Positions 2,937 through 57,714 of a DNA stretch of 57,714 nt are shown here, piece after piece. This DNA is from a virus (lineage: Duplodnaviria; Caudoviricetes): positions 1-57,714 of IMG/VR virus record IMGVR_UViG_3300044806_000061, one strand, 5' to 3'. The translations under genes were made by a program, and so were the position numbers. The number at the start of each line of letters is the position of its first letter. The first letter of the stretch is position 1. A model generated the notes under the pieces. It ran no database searches, had not been told where the DNA came from, and worked only from the letters and a program-made list of their open reading frames with translations.

Positions 2937-3511
2937 TATTTGTAGCAATTCTCGTGTTCGCCAATTTCCTTGCACGAATCTGGCAGTTTGAAAAAGCCAC
3001 GATCTAGCGCCGCAAAGAAACATTGCATAGTTACCGCCACGTCATATTCAGCTCCGTGAGCCTTCGCCTGGTCGTACTCAACGCCTAGACTCCAGCACAG
3101 CTCAGACAGCTTCGGGTACTTGCCATCGGGACATGCCCAGCGTGCATCTTCTTTCGTACAGAAGGAGCTGATGTTTGGTACTTCCAGCCCTGCCCTCATC
3201 AATTCACCAGCGAGGAAGGGACCATCAAAGCCCATGTTGTGAGCGATCAGCAGATCGCCCTGACTCATGTAATCAGCGATAGTCGGCGCCACTTCATCCC
3301 ATTTGGGACAACCCACTAGGTCGTCATAGGCGATGCCGTGAACCGCTTGTGCTTTGGGATCAATCGCTCGTTCGGGGTCGATCCGCTCGATATACATCCC
3401 AATCATCTTCCGTGTATTGAGGTCGTAGGTCAGCATGGCGATCTCGATGATCCTGTGACCGTCTTCCTGTTGAAGACCCGTAGTCTCCAAGTCCAGTCCA
3501 ATCAGTTTCAA
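2936..3511 (-). CDS. DEDDh 3'-5' exonuclease (DnaQ/epsilon-like)
   Basis: LDLETTG, AHNMGFD, AHGAEYD motifs; TTG start after GGAG. Confidence 0.9.
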   Translation of the reverse strand: MKLIGLDLETTGLQQEDGHRIIEIAMLTYDLNTRKMIGMYIERIDPERAIDPKAQAVHGIAYDDLVGCPKWDEVAPTIADYMSQGDLLIAHNMGFDGPFLAGELMRAGLEVPNISSFCTKEDARWACPDGKYPKLSELCWSLGVEYDQAKAHGAEYDVAVTMQCFFAALDRGFFKLPDSCKEIGEHENCYK

Positions 3512-3711
3512 GTGTTCTTCTCCACTTGTTCTTGCGACCACTCAGACTTTGTCCAACCTTCGTTGGAGACGAAGTATTCGCACTCGCCAAATTGATTCAG
3601 AGGCGCTCGGGTGAAGTAAGACTGTCGGTACTCATTTGCCACTGCCGTATAGCGGTGACAGTCAGGAGCACGCTCGCAACCTAAGCCTTTGCACATTGTG
3701 AGATCCGCCAT
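3508..3711 (-). CDS. small Cys-rich hypothetical protein (MADLTMC...)
   Basis: ORF with five Cys. Confidence 0.65.
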   Translation of the reverse strand: MADLTMCKGLGCERAPDCHRYTAVANEYRQSYFTRAPLNQFGECEYFVSNEGWTKSEWSQEQVEKNT

Positions 3712-3741
3712 ATCATCTACCTTTCATTCACTAATGACTTA

Positions 3742-4017
3742 TTATGACGCTCGATTATAGGGGTGACCAGCTTGCACGCAGGGGGATTTCATCGAGCCCT
3801 CGTCAGAAGTCATTTTCAAAGCCTCTTTAGCCCACCGAATATGATCTTCACACTGCCATTTAATTTTGTCGTGGCTCAGTTCGATTCGTTCGTTGGCAAT
3901 GGATTGAATCACCTGTTCATACTTGTCCAATTTAACCTGTTGCTGGCGTATGATTTCTTCTGACTCTTCTCGCCCATCTGCAACCCCTTCTTCATATTCA
4001 CTTAATCCAATTTTCAT
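3742..4017 (-). CDS. cassette-array small protein
   Basis: start lies inside junction repeat 4014-4030. Confidence 0.65.
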   Translation of the reverse strand: MKIGLSEYEEGVADGREESEEIIRQQQVKLDKYEQVIQSIANERIELSHDKIKWQCEDHIRWAKEALKMTSDEGSMKSPCVQAGHPYNRAS

Positions 4018-4427
4018 TTCTCTTGTGCCTCATCCAATAAAAATTTAGCAGTAATTAAACAAACCCAAGATTCTTCGTCATAGTGATATTCCCTACAAGG
4101 GCAACCAATAAATTCTTCTTTGTCTAAATTACAAAATTGCGTTTTTTCAACTTCAATCAAAAGACCTGTTTTTACGGCTAAATCTTGTAATTCATCCCAA
4201 TTACCAATACAATCGTCTCCATGTGCAATTATTGGTTTGACAAATGCTTTCAAGGCTTCATTTTCAGCTTGTAGCTGGCGAAGCATTTCGGCTGCCTCGT
4301 GCGACAAGCGGCCAACTGGATAATGTGTAGAGCTATGCTTTTCTTCGACCCAAAACCTTGCATCTTTTGGCACTCTCTCAAGCAGCTCAACTAAAGGCAC
4401 TTCGTAAACTTGTTGATTTGCGTTCAT
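4014..4427 (-). CDS. cassette-array protein (MNAN...MLRQLQAENEALK...EAQEK)
   Basis: ORF bounded by junction repeats. Confidence 0.75.
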   Translation of the reverse strand: MNANQQVYEVPLVELLERVPKDARFWVEEKHSSTHYPVGRLSHEAAEMLRQLQAENEALKAFVKPIIAHGDDCIGNWDELQDLAVKTGLLIEVEKTQFCNLDKEEFIGCPCREYHYDEESWVCLITAKFLLDEAQEK

Positions 4428-4639
4428 TTCTCACTTGCCTTTCTTAGTTCATCCTTTAGCTGGTTGTTTTCTGTAATGAGTTCTTTTAGCCAAAGTTCCA
4501 TTACATACCAACAATCTCCATCGTAGTTAGGGTCACCATTAAACTCGGTTTTATTTTCTTCTTCGAACTTCTTAACAAGCTGGCAGTATTTTTCGTAGTC
4601 GATGTCATAACAAGCGTATTTATATGCGTAATGTGCCAT
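4424..4639 (-). CDS. cassette-array protein (MAHYAYKY...LRKASEK)
   Basis: ATG at 4639 just after a repeat; ends in repeat. Confidence 0.7.
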   Translation of the reverse strand: MAHYAYKYACYDIDYEKYCQLVKKFEEENKTEFNGDPNYDGDCWYVMELWLKELITENNQLKDELRKASEK

Positions 4640-4658
4640 TATTTCTATTGTGCCTTTC

Positions 4659-4763
4659 TTAGTAACAACTATGAGCAACTGCAATTTTACCGCTAGAAAC
4701 CATTACGATAATGAGTAACATACCCACCATAAAACCAATCCAAAACCAATAGTTTTTATTCAT
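4659..4763 (-). CDS. cassette-array micro-protein, 34 aa, hydrophobic (MNKNYWFWIGFMVGMLLII...)
   Basis: hand translation; starts in one repeat, stops at the TAA of the next. Confidence 0.55.
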   Translation of the reverse strand: MNKNYWFWIGFMVGMLLIIVMVSSGKIAVAHSCY

Positions 4764-4852
4764 TTCTCACTTGCCTTTCTTAACCAACGCCAAATACACC
4801 CAAAACCAAGTCCATCAACAAATCCATTTAAAAATGCTTTTATTCTGTTCAT
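4760..4852 (-). CDS. cassette-array micro-protein, 30 aa (MNRIKAFLNGFVDGLGFGCIWRWLRKASEK)
   Basis: hand translation; exactly spans two repeats. Confidence 0.6.
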   Translation of the reverse strand: MNRIKAFLNGFVDGLGFGCIWRWLRKASEK

Positions 4853-5106
4853 TTCTCACTTGCCTTTCTTAGTATTGCTCTAATCTGCTTTAAACAATGG
4901 TGTGCCTTATAACTATTCCATTCGCTTTTAGGAATCAACAGTTCTTCCAAAATTTCCTCATCTGTTAGTTCTTTTACTGGATGAATATAGAGTGGAATCC
5001 AATCCTTTATTTGCCAATCAGGATAATCGCCTGTGTTCCAAATAAAGTTGTCATCGCAATCGGTCATCTTTACATCAATAATCCACGCTACTGGTTCTTT
5101 TTTCAT
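4849..5106 (-). CDS. cassette-array protein (EPVAW...HPVKELTDEE...ILRKASEK)
   Basis: ORF; paralogous blocks with 5111..5353. Confidence 0.75.
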   Translation of the reverse strand: MKKEPVAWIIDVKMTDCDDNFIWNTGDYPDWQIKDWIPLYIHPVKELTDEEILEELLIPKSEWNSYKAHHCLKQIRAILRKASEK

Positions 5107-5110
5107 TTTT

Positions 5111-5353
5111 TCATTTCTCTTGTGCCTTTCTTAATATTGAATCTGCAAATCGAATCATGTCTGCTCTTAAATCAGGGTTTCTCGCAAGGTTTGTAAATAC
5201 TTCCCACTTTTCCTCATCTGTTAGTTCTACTGGATGGGTATAGAGTTTTGTTCCTACTGGTGGATAGTTATCTACAAGCCATTTCACTCGCAAACTACTA
5301 GCATCGCCTACTGCCATCTGCTCTAAAACTAATTCCGCTACTGGTTTGTTCAT
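5111..5353 (-). CDS. cassette-array protein (KPVAE...HPVELTDEE...ILRKAQEK)
   Basis: ORF; paralogous blocks with 4849..5106. Confidence 0.75.
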   Translation of the reverse strand: MNKPVAELVLEQMAVGDASSLRVKWLVDNYPPVGTKLYTHPVELTDEEKWEVFTNLARNPDLRADMIRFADSILRKAQEK

Positions 5354-5568
5354 TTTTTACTCCATCCGTTTAATGACTCTTTCCATTCTTCCCATTGTTT
5401 TACCTCAGCTTTCAGTGCTTCTATTTGAAGTTCTTGTTGCTTAATAATGCTTTCAGCCAGCCCAAACTGGCGAAGCACGGCTTCAGCATCATTTAATACC
5501 TGACCATCGACCAGCGATAAGAAATATCTAACCAGTTTTAATTTGTCAGCTAGTTCATTTGCGTTCAT
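5350..5568 (-). CDS. cassette-array protein (MNANELAD...QIEALK)
   Basis: ATG within repeat 5565-5587. Confidence 0.7.
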   Translation of the reverse strand: MNANELADKLKLVRYFLSLVDGQVLNDAEAVLRQFGLAESIIKQQELQIEALKAEVKQWEEWKESLNGWSKK

Positions 5569-5584
5569 TTTTCCTGTGCCTTTC

Positions 5585-5746
5585 TTATTTCCAATCAAGT
5601 GCATCTAACTTTCCAATAAGCACCAGCCAAGCGTATTTGATTCTTTTAAAAGACCAAAATAACTTGGGTCTCGCTGGAATCCAAGTTTTTCCATCAACGC
5701 TACTAGATACATCCCAGTTTTTTATTTGTTGTGTTGTATATTTCAT
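5585..5746 (-). CDS. cassette-array small protein, 53 aa (MKYTTQQIKNW...WIPARP...)
   Basis: hand translation; starts in one repeat, stops at the TAA of the next. Confidence 0.65.
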   Translation of the reverse strand: MKYTTQQIKNWDVSSSVDGKTWIPARPKLFWSFKRIKYAWLVLIGKLDALDWK

Positions 5747-5982
5747 TTTTCACTTGCCTTTCTTAATGCAGAATCATTTAACAACTGTTTTAAAGATTCA
5801 ATATGGCTATCTTTATTTGCCATAGCCTTAATGAATTTATAGTTATCGTTTGATAGTCTTTCAATTTCAGCTTGTTGCTGGCGTAGCATGTCGGAGGCTT
5901 GTTCAGCCCAGTCATTTAGGCTTTGTTGTGATGCCTGTACATCAAGGTCATGTAATTCATCAGCTAGTTCATTTGCGTTCAT
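5743..5982 (-). CDS. cassette-array protein (MNANELAD...MLRQQQAEIE...LRKASEK)
   Basis: ORF bounded by repeats. Confidence 0.75.
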   Translation of the reverse strand: MNANELADELHDLDVQASQQSLNDWAEQASDMLRQQQAEIERLSNDNYKFIKAMANKDSHIESLKQLLNDSALRKASEK

Positions 5983-6322
5983 TTTCACTTGCCTTTCTTA
6001 GTATTGCTTCAATGACTTGTACAACATAATTTGCTGGTATATTTTCATACCCCAAATATTCACCATCCATTCCATGATGCTCATGGTAAAACTCACCATC
6101 TTCGCCCATTGCTGGAATGCTTTTAAATGCTTCATTGATAATTGCTTTCAACGCCTCTATTTCAGCTTGTTGCTCGTTCCAGTTAGCTAACCATTCCAAG
6201 TTTTTAGTTGTTAAGCGTTCTATTTCAGCTTGTTGCTGGCGTAGCATGGTGGCGGCTTCTTTGTTTAGCCCCATGATGGGAGCATCAAATTCAATTAAAT
6301 CTGCCAATTCATCTGCGTTCAT
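5969..6322 (-). CDS. cassette-array protein (MNADELAD...MLRQQQAEIE...ILRKASENERK)
   Basis: start moved to MNADEL; a 1-nt-shorter repeat extends the C-terminus. Confidence 0.75.
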   Translation of the reverse strand: MNADELADLIEFDAPIMGLNKEAATMLRQQQAEIERLTTKNLEWLANWNEQQAEIEALKAIINEAFKSIPAMGEDGEFYHEHHGMDGEYLGYENIPANYVVQVIEAILRKASENERK

Positions 6323-6482
6323 ATTGTTCTTTCTCCGTTGGCCTTGCCCCGTATTCAGCATAGTGTTTGGCACATAGGCAACCATAAGCAATAGCGGGCT
6401 CACACTCTCTCGTTTCCGTGTCCCACTCGCAAAAGTAGCCATCGTGTTCGTACTCACATCCACAAGTTAAGATAAATGTCAT
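6309..6482 (-). CDS. small Cys-rich protein, 57 aa (MTFILTCGC...CLCAKH)
   Basis: hand translation; ATGA overlap with upstream stop. Confidence 0.6.
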   Translation of the reverse strand: MTFILTCGCEYEHDGYFCEWDTETRECEPAIAYGCLCAKHYAEYGARPTEKEQYERR

Positions 6483-6697
6483 TGTTCTCTAGCCTTTATT
6501 CTTCCCTGCTCTAGCCAAATACCAATGGCATTGTTGGTCGTTATTGTTTCTGCCTGCTCCCCATCTTTCCAGATAAAGATGATGTTTCTTCCGTCGAAAC
6601 CAATGTGTCCATCGGCTGAGGTTAGGATTGCGTCGTAGTGATCCTGAGCGGAAAGGAAAGCCAGAACTACAGAGTTCAGGATGTCGTACTCTTTCAT
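6479..6697 (-). CDS. hypothetical protein
   Basis: ORF with ATGA overlaps. Confidence 0.6.
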   Translation of the reverse strand: MKEYDILNSVVLAFLSAQDHYDAILTSADGHIGFDGRNIIFIWKDGEQAETITTNNAIGIWLEQGRIKAREQ

Positions 6698-6870
6698 TTC
6701 TCTTGCTCCTCTTTCAACTGGATCAATGCATCAATCAGCATGGGCAGAATCTTCTTGTCCATTGCGATGTGTGTGCCGTGAGGCAATGCCGCAAGATGGA
6801 GTCGAAGCCAGTTATCCTGTATATCGACCCCAGCGTACATATCCCCGTTTGGCTTGTTAATCGAAATCAT
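6694..6870 (-). CDS. hypothetical protein, 58 aa (MISINKPNG...EEQEK)
   Basis: hand translation; ATGA overlaps at both ends. Confidence 0.6.
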   Translation of the reverse strand: MISINKPNGDMYAGVDIQDNWLRLHLAALPHGTHIAMDKKILPMLIDALIQLKEEQEK

Positions 6871-7196
6871 TTCTGATTGGCGTTGTACTGTGCATTGGCG
6901 TTCTGCCTGTTGTAAATGCTATTGGAGTTACCCCCGTTCACAGCATTGTTACAGGCAACATAGCCATAGCAATTCACATCGGCTCGAGGCGGTGTAGTAA
7001 TGTCCTTATAGAACTGATCCCTGGCGATACTTGCACCATAGGTATCCCTTGAACCACCACCGCCACCTCCACGACCTCCCCCTCCTCCGCTGTACGGCAG
7101 AGGATCGGGATCGCCATAGCAATCGCTGTAGCCACACGCTGTCGCCTGACCTGAGATCAGGGTGAGCACAAGGGCGAACGCTGTGATGGCTTTCAT
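6867..7196 (-). CDS. exported Gly-rich protein
   Basis: N-terminal signal-peptide-like segment; poly-Gly tract. Confidence 0.6.
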   Translation of the reverse strand: MKAITAFALVLTLISGQATACGYSDCYGDPDPLPYSGGGGGRGGGGGGSRDTYGASIARDQFYKDITTPPRADVNCYGYVACNNAVNGGNSNSIYNRQNANAQYNANQK

Positions 7197-7705
7197 GCTG
7201 GCACCGCCTCTTTATCCTTTGGCCAGCCCATACTCATGAGGTCAGCAACAAGGTTGGCGATGACAGGAACGGTACGATCCACAGGGGATTCAGCTTCGGG
7301 CAGATACTTCGAGAACTCAGGCAACGCCTTACGAACTTGAACATCCGTCGTGCATGATCGAATTACGCCATTCAGCTTGTCACGGAGATCCCGTCGAGCT
7401 TCGTTCTGAGCCTTCTGAAGTTCCTCGAGCTTGTCAAACTCTGCCTGTGCTTTCGCCGACAACTTGAGTCTTTCCTCATGGATATTAAAAACATACAGGC
7501 TACAAAACTCACGAAGCCAAAAGTGATTCATGTTGAGGTATTGTCTTAGCGTTTTATCTCGTGCGATCTTCTGCAACTTTTCAGGAAGTTGCTGAATGCT
7601 ATCCTCGAGAATCAAAGCATGAGCCTGAGATTCGTAGTCAACCTTTGGAACATCCTCCATAACGGCAAGAACAAACGCCTCTCGGTGGTATTTAGTTAGT
7701 TTCAT
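7193..7705 (-). CDS. conserved phage protein, possibly Nmad5 family
   Basis: MKLTKYHREAFVLAVMEDVPKVDY... and LPEFSKYLP resemble that family; from memory. Confidence 0.5.
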   Translation of the reverse strand: MKLTKYHREAFVLAVMEDVPKVDYESQAHALILEDSIQQLPEKLQKIARDKTLRQYLNMNHFWLREFCSLYVFNIHEERLKLSAKAQAEFDKLEELQKAQNEARRDLRDKLNGVIRSCTTDVQVRKALPEFSKYLPEAESPVDRTVPVIANLVADLMSMGWPKDKEAVPA

Positions 7706-7714
7706 ATTTTTCTC

Positions 7715-7870
7715 CTAATCAATTCGCATAGCGATATAAAAAGCAAAGTAAGCGGCGGCTTGTGGATAGTCTTCATTCCAAAGACACCACAGCGCCCATA
7801 CAATGAGATACAGGCTTGCGATAGCAATGATGAGACTGCCTATCTGTTTTAATAAAGGGCTGATAGTCAT
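7715..7870 (-). CDS. small membrane protein, 51 aa
   Basis: hand translation MTISPLLKQIGSLIIAIASLYLIVWALW... Confidence 0.5.
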   Translation of the reverse strand: MTISPLLKQIGSLIIAIASLYLIVWALWCLWNEDYPQAAAYFAFYIAMRID

Positions 7871-8097
7871 ACTGTCGCCTCCGAAGCCAAGCTGTAACGC
7901 ACATAGCGCACTGAGGCACCGAAGCGATTAACGCCTGTCTTTTTCTCGTGATGGATGATGTGCCCTGCACGCTCCAGCTCACCGATGCGTGCCGACAACT
8001 CGAAACACCCAAGATCCACAACTGCATCGGTTCGGGTGATCGGCTTCTCCTTGAGAAGTGCTAAGACCATTTCGGCCTGAGTCATTCGTTTACTCAT
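7867..8097 (-). CDS. winged helix-turn-helix protein
   Basis: TQ..MVL.LL...PIT..DA...LG..LSARI.EL...GH.I pattern. Confidence 0.7.
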   Translation of the reverse strand: MSKRMTQAEMVLALLKEKPITRTDAVVDLGCFELSARIGELERAGHIIHHEKKTGVNRFGASVRYVRYSLASEATV

Positions 8098-8116
8098 ATT
8101 TACTCTCCCTTATGTA

Positions 8117-8165
8117 AGTCATAACTGACTAAGTACAGAATACAGATCAAATACAGGACATGCAA
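8117..8165 (-). promoter_or_regulatory. promoter (TTGCAT-GT-CCTGTA-N9-TATTCT) with operator AGTCA-TAAC-TGACT downstream
   Basis: promoter 8137-8165, palindrome 8117-8130. Confidence 0.7.
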
Positions 8166-12538: not shown

Positions 12539-12613
12539 TGGTGCCCAGTGAGAGAATCGAACTCCCGATATCCTCATTACAAGTGAGGTGCATTACCACT
12601 CTGCTAACTGGGC
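12539..12613 (-). tRNA. tRNA-Thr(UGU) with encoded CCA
   Basis: GCCCAGT/ACTGGGC acceptor; CCTCA-CTTGTAA-TGAGG anticodon arm; GTTCGATTC T-arm. Confidence 0.93.
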
Positions 12614-12626
12614 ATACTGCAAAACT

Positions 12627-12714
12627 TGGCGGAGAGAGTAGGATTCGAACCTACGGAGCTTTTACACTCGTCTGTTTTCAAGGCAGATGCTTTCGACCAC
12701 TCAGCCATCTCTCC
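12627..12714 (-). tRNA. tRNA-Ser(UGA) with long variable arm and CCA
   Basis: GGAGAGA/TCTCTCC acceptor, discriminator G, loop CTTGAAA, GTTCGAATC. Confidence 0.92.
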
Positions 12715-12782: not shown

Positions 12783-12802
12783 CAGTATAGTCACTTCTGA
12801 CT
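12783..12802 (-). promoter_or_regulatory. operator AGTCA-CTTC-TGACT merging into -10 TATACT of the tRNA promoter
   Basis: minus strand AGTCAGAAGTGACTATACT. Confidence 0.65.
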
Positions 12803-13020
12803 TACTTGACCAGTACTCCCATTTCCTGAAGGATCTGACGGGCTTGCTTGCCGTGATCGAACCCCTGCCCCGCATAGAACTTCAGAACGCTCACCAAGGC
12901 TCCAAACATCGCCACAGACTTCGCATTGGAGTCGGTGACAGCGACGGGCTTGGTAATGGCGGGAATCGCTTCCTGCTCGATCTGAGGCGTTTTAGGGCCT
13001 GGGAATTGGATCACGGTCAT
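12802..13020 (-). CDS. hypothetical protein
   Basis: ORF after AGGA RBS. Confidence 0.6.
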   Translation of the reverse strand: MTVIQFPGPKTPQIEQEAIPAITKPVAVTDSNAKSVAMFGALVSVLKFYAGQGFDHGKQARQILQEMGVLVK

Positions 13021-16323: not shown

Positions 16324-16342
16324 AGTATAGTCACGGGTGACT
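16324..16342 (-). promoter_or_regulatory. operator AGTCA-CGGG-TGACT merging into -10 TATACT
   Basis: palindrome 16329-16342. Confidence 0.65.
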
Positions 16343-16346
16343 TAGA

Positions 16347-54014: not shown

Positions 54015-54043
54015 ATTGTCAAGTCATTACTGACTTATTGCAA
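54015..54043 (-). promoter_or_regulatory. promoter TTGCAA-N17-GACAAT with perfect operator in the spacer
   Basis: AAGTCA-TTAC-TGACTT, core 54022-54035. Confidence 0.65.
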
Positions 54044-57319: not shown

Positions 57320-57714
57320 TTATGGTGTACCGTAAGCAGTTATGTTTGATGCCGCAGTTAAATTACCAGTAGAAGACATTGACATTACTACAGTTGATCC
57401 GTATTTAAACTGAAGAACCCCACCTGCTTCAACAACAGTAAAGTTAGAAGTTACTAAAGAAGTAGCTGTACTTGCGTTTCCAGTGACATTTCCAGTGACA
57501 TTGCCGGTTAAATTACCAGTGACATTGCCGGTTAAATTACCAGTGACATTGCCGGTTAAATTACCAGTGACATTGCCGGTTAAATTACCAGTGACATCGC
57601 CAGTGACATCGCCGATAATTGAGATTGCCCATGTTCCGCTTGGCGTAACGGTCGATGCCGCTGTTACGCGACCTTTCGCGTCTACAGTGATTGACGGAAT
57701 GGAGTTATTCCCAC
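57320..57714 (-). CDS. tail fibre protein, C-terminal part (5' end outside window)
   Basis: hand translation ITVDAKGRVT...(GNLTGNVT)n...NITAYGTP stop. Confidence 0.8.
   Translation of the reverse strand, partial: GNNSIPSITVDAKGRVTAASTVTPSGTWAISIIGDVTGDVTGNLTGNVTGNLTGNVTGNLTGNVTGNLTGNVTGNVTGNASTATSLVTSNFTVVEAGGVLQFKYGSTVVMSMSSTGNLTAASNITAYGTP
57480..57611. repeat. tandem repeat CCAGTGACATTGCCGGTTAAATTA x4 plus three 12-bp half units
   Basis: perfect 24-mers at 57492-57587; encodes GNLTGNVT. Confidence 0.95.

Follow-up and report, generated by a model that had tools for sequence, protein, structure and literature searches.

The window analysed here, the whole 57,714 bases of a linear virus DNA (IMG/VR record IMGVR_UViG_3300044806_000061, Caudoviricetes) estimated to be 55% complete, contains at positions 3742-6870 a block of 14 packed open reading frames (ORFs) of 30-137 aa, every one on the minus strand and most of them joined by ATGA stop/start overlaps. 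Nine of the ORF boundaries in this array are marked by a junction motif that in gene sense reads TAAGAAAGGCA-NNN-GAGAAATGA, the central NNN being AGT or CAA in the window. This motif is probably a translational-coupling junction that doubles as a linker for short-homology recombination, and the block a hyperplastic array of small genes put together with this standard joint. If so, one defined linker of 17-23 nt that recurs hundreds of times would be both a translation signal and an exchange point between near-identical phages, the linker hypothesis of modular phage evolution would become directly testable in a natural gene pool, gene flow would extend to phages differing in GC content and lifestyle, and the junction would provide a simple marker for hypervariable accessory-gene arrays in metagenomes. 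A full-text search of the literature (supplementary files not covered) gave a single paper, which is unrelated, and no description of the junction motif or of the peptide tail that it encodes.

All nine copies are on the minus strand between 4014 and 6000, and no other was found in the whole record. A motif search of the window with up to 3 mismatches gave seven matches, 0 being expected from 100 shuffles: three exact copies of the AGT form (copy 2, 4424-4446; copy 4, 4760-4782; copy 5, 4849-4871), one exact copy of the CAA form (copy 6, 5111-5133), two with one mismatch (copy 7, 5565-5587; copy 8, 5743-5765) and one with two mismatches and a shifted start, ATAATG (copy 3, 4639-4661). The other two are copy 1 (4014-4036), exact in its 3' 17 nt and diverged in its 5' part, and copy 9 (5979-6000), in which a 1-nt deletion makes the upstream ORF run on to ...LRKASENERK-stop. 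Neighbouring copies are 89-454 nt apart. The upstream ORF stops at the TGA of the terminal ATGA and so acquires the tail ...RKA(S/Q)EK (at copy 1 the 137-aa ORF ends ...DEAQEK-stop and the ATG belongs to a 91-aa ORF), and at two copies the leading TAA provides the stop instead, for a 34-aa ORF at 4659 (copy 3) and for a 53-aa ORF at 5585 (copy 7). One more boundary, at 5350-5353, is an ATGA overlap without the junction repeat. On all these points (about 14 packed ORFs of 30-137 aa, nine repeat-bearing boundaries, units of about 90-450 bp, a repeat that encodes the upstream C-terminus or stops it with TAA and leads by ATGA into the next gene) the original prediction, made from the sequence alone, proved accurate, except that it had placed copy 9 near 5966-5988.

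The purine-rich Shine-Dalgarno-like stretch that had also been predicted corresponds to AGAAAGG, which complements the last 7 nt of the 3' end of the 16S gene (...CACCTCCTTTCT) of a Polynucleobacter isolate described below. It is found ~10 nt before the start, slightly upstream of the G-rich Shine-Dalgarno stretch of the other genes of the loci (-11 to -8). There are no terminator-like sites in 3400-7800 and the promoter-like sites are fewer than in shuffled sequence (4 vs 8.4 expected, none coinciding with a junction copy), so the array is likely read as one transcript. ATGA overlaps are an established setting for termination-reinitiation coupling, with which the arrangement of the junction would be compatible. 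No stable RNA fold was detected at 8 junctions taken with 30-nt flanks (z between -1.86 and +1.67, no common structure), nor any Rfam match in 3400-7300 with E up to 1. At copy 6 the ATG opens a three-codon mini-ORF, MKK-stop (5103-5114), and the 85-aa ORF starts at an ATG overlapping the mini-ORF's own stop, so that two ATGA overlaps follow each other within an A-run; this may be an A-run slip or a deliberate relay for reinitiation.

Distribution and conservation of the junction

The 23-mer, suspected to occur in other phages, was found by an exact scan of IMG/VR in at least 120 contigs, and the exact copies among the matches listed for 120 contigs were 175 (161 with CAA, 13 with AGT and one with AAT in the centre). 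Comparison loci were picked from these contigs by exact motif match, and their ORFs are simple longest-ORF picks. With up to 4 mismatches over the 20 fixed positions, 302 copies appeared in 122 sources (1.108 Mb) versus 3 for the reversed pattern. All copies lie on a single strand in 120 of the 122 sources, the ATG is present in 290 of the 302 copies and 285 of these start an ORF of 25 aa or more. The upstream ORF uses the TGA as its stop in 241 copies, the TAA in 22 and the inner TGA in 3, and for the remaining 36 copies no upstream ORF of that length was found.

The comparison loci have a median GC of 0.41, or 0.38 near the motif, and none reaches the value of the window's core. The array itself (3938-6230) has a GC of 0.372 versus 0.487 for the whole window, as expected from the predicted AT-richness of the block, and thus a 37%-GC array in a 49%-GC phage looks imported from a wider phage pool. 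Grouping the loci by shared large proteins gave one component of 118, with no lineages delimited. The sequencing runs that contain the window's array are labelled as freshwater, wastewater and groundwater metagenomes. In addition, a variant of the junction, ...AAAGCGAGTGAGAAATGA (19 copies in the peptide scan described below), replaces the common form throughout five loci (L056, L082, L121, L036 and L115), which points to junctions evolving in concert within a lineage.

Among species-representative genomes the CAA/AGT form is found mostly in bins of metagenome-assembled genomes (MAGs) with many labels, and the sole isolate that carries it is Polynucleobacter sp. JS-Safj-400b-B2. Here the copy belongs to an integrase-flanked prophage, two genes from the tyrosine integrase and between ORFs ending ...FLRKASEK and ...GIKASEK. 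Only this isolate, among 151 genomes of its genus, has a true motif copy, indicating that the motif is not a feature of the host and that the host link consists of one prophage; 10 further matches in the same genomes have 2 mismatches each and appear to be due to chance or a host gene (the control gave 2). Sharing among phages, as had been proposed, is seen in the many viral contigs, and the one-host part of that proposal has this single prophage as its basis. The copies in MAG bins (Bacteroidetes, a cyanobacterium, Micrarchaeota, Nitrosotalea, beta-proteobacteria) were not used as host evidence, the binning of phage contigs being unreliable, and four other exact matches, with GAA, GTA, ATT and CAT centres, look unrelated.

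Synonymous sites of the repeat are conserved, as the original prediction had anticipated. A codon-blind scan for KA[QS]EK-stop gave 249 tails, 195 of which are encoded by one identical 18-mer, a share expected to be ~0.8% from the product of background codon frequencies; subtracting one ascertained copy per locus (120 loci) leaves ~75 of 129. Codon use in the tails departs strongly from the background (AAG 92% vs 41%, GCA 90% vs 34%, GAG 95% vs 36%), and the Ser codon is AGT in 38 of 38 cases vs 18%. When the 241 tail-bearing proteins were clustered after trimming 12 residues, 58 clusters resulted, the largest a single-linkage modular family of 164 proteins and the other 57 including hydrophobic micro-peptides and Cys-rich proteins. 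Exact copies are 14 of the 22 of TAA type, where the motif is untranslated, vs 153 of the 241 that are translated. Tails can also be frameshifted, as in copy 9 of the window and in P0032, P0057 and P0064. Upstream of the motif, positions -20 to -1 are 62-88% conserved with no relaxation at third positions, the conservation running ~20 nt into ...FARAIL..., and past the ATGA it falls immediately. Nucleotides and peptide are both constrained, the nucleotide signal being far beyond codon bias.

Breakpoints and portable cassettes

Similarity between loci stops at the junction far more often than elsewhere. We counted the internal ends of matches of at least 85% identity and 200 bp (257 unique ends), and 19.8% of them fall at the motif vs 1.4% of random places. 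The motif junctions showed 104 breaks and 30 read-throughs, while for the other same-strand gene junctions of the same loci the figures were 182 and 408, giving break frequencies of 78% and 31%; counted by junction, breaks affect 65 of 72 and 139 of 421, respectively. When the downstream flank was related, the upstream flank was also shared in 16 of 62 motif pairs vs 160 of 285 pairs elsewhere (cluster-based Fisher test on 16/63 vs 160/285, odds ratio 0.27, nominal p ~1e-5, with pairs that are not independent). None of these junction-pair counts is statistically independent.

Long homologous blocks begin at motif base 0 or -1: a 9.0-kb block at 95% identity between L091 or L027 and L101, which starts at motif base 0, one of 4.4 kb at 99.2% between L060 and L111 and one of 4.0 kb at 93% between L022 and L033. 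In L060 and L111 the two flanks are 99.3% and 99.2% alike and enclose 376 and 557 nt, respectively, of unrelated cassettes with three junctions each, and L101 has six genes where L091 has one. These three comparisons agree with the original prediction that cassette content varies between close relatives with a breakpoint exactly at the repeat; the other breakpoint of these pairs is in conserved segments within genes (EPVAW, MLRQQQAE). We also found 23 homologous junction-to-junction units in different loci. Their outer flanks are both unrelated in 15, both related in 7 and mixed in one, and the 15 pairs with unrelated flanks correspond to 7 distinct cassettes located between two junctions, so that the same cassettes do occur in otherwise unrelated surroundings, as foreseen. 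One of these portable cassettes is a 31-aa hydrophobic peptide that precedes different genes in L101 and L033. Neither identical order and content among relatives, nor breakpoints random with respect to the repeat, nor conservation limited to the amino acids was found.

The closest relatives of this phage were examined over 1500-9000 in contigs of four runs from four studies, array parts without cover being left uninterpreted. Run X5 keeps much of the array, in two pieces that span 4419-5765 with one letter different each and whose contigs end at junction copies. One contig each of X8 and X12 fuses 3937 straight to 6231 and a contig of X15 joins 4273 to 6235 (side 255), so that the low-GC segment 3938-6230 (minus strand), delimited by its GC and by the contig joints of X8, X12 and X15 with flank identity of at least 90%, is a strain-variable insertion or deletion. 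By arithmetic the reading frame is kept at both joints. A second repeat, CAGCTTGTTGCTGGCGTAGCAT as read on the plus strand (repeat family D7), codes on the minus strand for (M)LRQQQAE within genes, and the joints have their endpoints in its copies 1, 2 and 4. Its four copies are located at 3926-3957 (copy 1, ..IRQQQ.., one end of the 3937|6231 joint), 4258-4289 (copy 2, one end of the 4273|6235 joint), 5861-5892 (copy 3) and 6219-6250 (copy 4, MLRQQQAE, the other end of both joints). The joints at this repeat indicate that the junction is one of several linkers. Across the pool the MLRQQQAE segment gave 53 matches with up to 5 mismatches in 36 of the 122 sources, and the control gave 0. The sequence between junctions had been described as largely unrelated, which holds in part, since modules recur in it: four MNA(N/D)... 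N-termini, the four MLRQQQAE segments and two LTDEE segments.

Of the 21 loose contig ends listed for the interior of the array, 10 fall on a junction copy or no more than 6 nt away from one; as the listing covers 24 of 167 loose ends, this is a hint only. The many short-sided joints (22-31 nt) that lie on motif copies were not counted, as such joints often come from other organisms or from repeats. A second indel among these close relatives is seen at ~2781-2788, where the X8, X12 and X15 contigs matching on either side have ~413 bases more than the window.

Mechanism, alternatives and known systems

The reading that we favour, a coupling junction that also serves as a recombination linker, would work as follows. 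The block would be a hyperplastic array of small, early-type genes that are transcribed together, each linked onward by the standard 17-23-nt junction. This junction closes the upstream gene (TAA in one frame, TGA in a second and, in the AGT form, one more TGA), supplies an ordinary-strength Shine-Dalgarno stretch, AGAAAGG, ~10 nt ahead of the start, and opens the next gene with an ATG overlapping the stop (ATGA). As a large pool of freshwater-type phages uses the identical junction, it would also act as a patch of homology, at which recombination could swap, insert or remove whole genes with translatability preserved. The enzymes would probably be phage single-strand-annealing proteins together with exonucleases, acting during co-infection or with prophages. 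Annealing proteins with exonucleases recombine short and diverged homologies, and genes of this kind are found near the arrays in the 123 sources: a Sak-like annealing protein is encoded in 19 loci, and exonuclease families are represented in 16, 10 and 9. The junction would be the commonest of several linkers conserved in nucleotide sequence, and the intragenic MLRQQQAE, EPVAW and LTDEE segments would reassort protein modules. As to the original prediction of a plug-in junction for gene shuffling, breakpoints, portability and synonymous conservation speak for it, the recombination itself is something that we infer, the second breakpoints are intragenic and the peptide is also constrained; the observations behind that prediction are confirmed and its interpretation is partly supported.

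Several findings weigh against the favoured reading. The Shine-Dalgarno pairing is average (-7.9 kcal/mol for the CAA form, equalled by 26% of other genes), so translation strength does not account for the conservation of the spacer. A separate idea, extended pairing with 16S as the cause of conservation, was rejected: the 5' AGAA is the least conserved part, the G-to-A changes seen would break the pairing and the energy is average. Changes within the motif, counted by haplotype, are 52 at the four third-codon positions vs 25 at the eight first and second positions, an excess that is alike inside the large family and in the other clusters, and therefore the tail peptide or the tRNAs that decode it are also under some constraint. 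With 164 of 241 tail carriers in one family, whose C-terminal helix ends ...FARAILRKAQEK, part of the tail conservation may be ordinary protein constraint. The second (upstream) breakpoint in L060/L111 and L091/L101 is the coding segment ...EPVA(W) instead of a junction, and the nearest relatives of this phage lack the low-GC array, with indel endpoints in the intragenic repeat and not in the junction. Besides, the LRQQQAE segment, which has no start function, is as conserved synonymously as the junction (one 21-mer at 24 of 38 sites vs ~0.08% expected by the product rule), so that this conservation may come from rapid spread by recombination and not from selection on junction function.

The repeat might simply be a protein motif, namely the 3' end of the genes of an abundant family of paralogues (C-terminal helix ...ILRKAQEK), followed by an ATGA start and with breakpoints that reflect survival of gene-end recombinants. 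This would agree with the 164 of 241 carriers in a single family, with changes gathered at third codon positions and with conservation extending ~20 nt upstream into ...FARAIL.... We nevertheless regard it as unlikely: the tail is also carried by 57 further clusters of unrelated proteins, 195 of 249 tails use one 18-mer expected at ~0.8%, 22 copies lie untranslated past the TAA (14 of them exact), third positions are not relaxed at -20 to -1, and 78% of motif junctions vs 31% of other gene junctions break. The motif could also be bound by a factor acting in trans, such as a translational repressor of the phage or an RNA-binding protein timing early genes, with shuffling as a by-product, much as RegA and RegB act on the ribosome sites of T4 early genes. 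This would explain why the spacer between Shine-Dalgarno and ATG is conserved though 16S rRNA pairing does not require it, why the motif is limited to one early-type block in the window and why lineages have their own haplotypes, such as the 19 copies of ...AAAGCGAGTGAGAAATGA; it is made rather improbable by the lack of any large protein family accompanying the motif in more than 20 of the 123 sources (the loci are short), by the presence of the motif in phages with quite different replication modules and by the equal conservation of the MLRQQQAE segment without a start site.

Slightly less credit still is given to neutral hitch-hiking, by which the junction and the other linkers would be the least-diverged remnants of a recent expansion of a gene set, without any role in translation or recombination. 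Equally conserved synonymous segments elsewhere and the gradual decay of conservation upstream of the motif would be in line with it, yet both flanks are often unrelated around 17-23 exact nucleotides, a pattern that recent descent of whole genes could yield only if the motif had been exchanged at repeatedly; an ORF follows 285 of the 290 motif ATGs, and similarity steps at the motif are sharp. Finally, a site-specific, integron-like system in which an unrecognised recombinase or nuclease cuts at the junction appears very improbable. One-orientation cassettes without promoters, breakpoints exact at motif base 0 or -1 and an Endonuclease VII/HNH-like family near the arrays in 10 loci would suit such a system; against it, the tyrosine recombinase family (PF00589) gave 0 matches in the 57.7-kb record, 55% complete, when 14 of 14 control genomes were matched, there is no hairpin or attC-like fold, the second breakpoints are in other repeats and no protein family is universally tied to the motif. 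The original prediction had compared the array with an integron lacking an integrase. The promoterless cassettes in a single orientation, with content varying between relatives, sustain this as an analogy, but no integrase was found in the incomplete record and no attC-like folded site at the 8 junctions, each junction cassette has its own ribosome site and the exchange appears to be driven by homology.

Returning to a coupling junction that is also a linker, its nearest parallels are phage elements at gene boundaries. The promoter-early stem-loops (PeSLs) of T4-type phages are ~100 bp long, combine a sigma-70-type promoter with a terminator hairpin and act at the level of transcription; in hyperplastic regions they lie on either side of small ORFan genes and coincide with the indels and replacements that distinguish close relatives, and it has been proposed that recombination between copies, for which mini-circles were shown, transfers genes together with a signal for their expression (Arbiol et al. 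2010, PMC2839356). In terms of that description, the junction copies likewise flank ORFans in a hyperplastic region and mark the endpoints of indels and replacements between close relatives, a likeness limited by the window's own relatives, whose endpoints are at another repeat (MLRQQQAE). The junction differs from PeSLs in having 17-23 nt with neither a sigma-70-like promoter nor a terminator hairpin, in acting through stop, Shine-Dalgarno and start, in overlapping coding sequence to which it adds a peptide tail, and in being common to phages with different replication modules. Comeau et al. (2014, PMC4122927) are another reference for PeSLs.

The Start-Associated Sequences (SAS) of Cluster K mycobacteriophages, restricted to one phage cluster, are 13 bp long and located 3-7 bp before the start; they contain a Shine-Dalgarno core, are conserved beyond the need of 16S pairing, sometimes have the upstream stop inside and precede different gene families (Pope et al. 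2011, PMC3203893). As far as this account goes, the junction resembles them as an asymmetric conserved sequence in one orientation right before non-structural starts (ATG in 290 of 302 copies, one strand in 120 of 122 sources), with a Shine-Dalgarno core conserved beyond the 16S need, the upstream stop inside and varied gene families. Its sequence is unlike the SAS consensus, its host link is a Polynucleobacter prophage and not a Cluster K mycobacteriophage, the start and two or three stops are part of it, and in many contigs it coincides with points of exchange, whereas the passages on SAS in PMC3203893 do not tie them to mosaic breakpoints. For lambdoid phages, short conserved boundary (linker) sequences have been proposed for modular exchange (cited in PMC3029335). 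So described, these are also short homologous patches where the similarity between relatives stops and beyond which the DNA is unrelated, the difference being that the junction is a single defined sequence, present in hundreds of copies, and a translation signal too. The junction shares the logic of PeSLs, SAS and boundary sequences and differs from them as a translation-level, coding-overlapping element found in phages whose replication modules differ.

A wider proposal, which we advance only tentatively and with less confidence than the linker role itself, is that unrelated lineages of freshwater phages share an integrase-free exchange of cassettes, for which the stop/Shine-Dalgarno/start junction and the intragenic adaptors would be a common interface of recombination and expression for pan-phage micro-genes. 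The lineages seen are a large lytic 49%-GC phage with a PolIII-alpha-type polymerase, many phages of ~41% GC and a temperate Polynucleobacter prophage. Any gene placed behind an adaptor would then be both expressed and portable, and the adaptors would stay synonymously identical because they serve as the common interface.

Other features of the array and the window

All ORFs of the block are on the minus strand and, of the 10 array ORFs compared with Pfam and PHROGs, none exceeded the Pfam threshold, and there were three PHROG matches, all of unknown function. From the lowest coordinate they are a 91-aa ORF (3742-4017), whose portion 3' of 3937 is retained in relatives; a 137-aa ORF (4014-4427) with no Pfam or PHROG family, for which no ESM Atlas match reached 0.9 (Ead_Ea22, at 0.82, is a lead only); a 71-aa ORF ending ...LRKASEK (4424-4639); a 34-aa hydrophobic micro-ORF that by eye looks membrane-like (4659-4763); and a 30-aa micro-ORF ending ...LRKASEK (4760-4852). 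They are followed by an 85-aa ORF (4849-5106; LTDEE ... ILRKASEK) that belongs to the large modular family, an 80-aa ORF (5111-5353; LYTHP, LTDEE ... ILRKAQEK) with 68 metagenome relatives, none of them with a Pfam family, a 72-aa coiled-coil-like ORF (5350-5568; MNANELA...) whose 3' boundary is the ATGA overlap without repeat, the 53-aa ORF with a match to phrog_21988, of unknown function (5585-5746), a 79-aa ORF (5743-5982; MNANELA ... MLRQQQAEIE ... LRKASEK) and a 117-aa ORF (5969-6322), whose N-terminal part (6231-6322) is retained in relatives. The last three ORFs (57, 72 and 58 aa; 6309-6870) have the weak junction-like boundaries at 6479 and 6694 that the original prediction had listed as weaker versions of the repeat; they have only the 3' part in common with the motif, a 12-mer at 6694, and the DNA around both is retained by the close relatives, outside the variable array. 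In the large family the modules MNNEPVAW..., ...LYTHP..LTDEE..., the MLRQQQAEIE coiled coil and ...FARAILRKAQEK occur in many combinations (L060, L111, L091, L101; P0002-P0068).

The record encodes a PolIII-alpha-type polymerase, a ribonucleotide reductase, an SbcC-like protein, a ligase, a DnaB-like protein and tail-fibre proteins, with almost all of these genes on the minus strand. In the GenBank phage collection the array had one short match (MW202753.1, covering 5% of the query), and a 20-kb piece of the core had none. Directly upstream of the array, a 109-aa ORF (6867-7196, minus strand) begins like a signal peptide, shows a Cys after ...GQATA and contains a long run of Gly; by eye it resembles a lipoprotein.

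The palindrome AGTCA-N4-TGACTTA has 25 matches on both strands of the genome vs 0.32 expected, at ~17 intergenic sites (e.g. 3726-3741, 8115-8132, 12789-12804, 16329-16344 and 54020-54037), and is probably a promoter or operator signal of the phage's own. None of the matches is within 3742-8114, consistent with the predicted lack of the operator motif in the block. Genes for tRNA-Thr(TGT) and tRNA-Ser(TGA) are located at 12539-12714 on the minus strand. At the low-GC end of the window, by tail-fibre-like genes, a 12-nt unit (24-nt super-unit) is repeated head to tail ~ten times at 57453-57621, probably as a repetitive fibre or collagen-like coding repeat.

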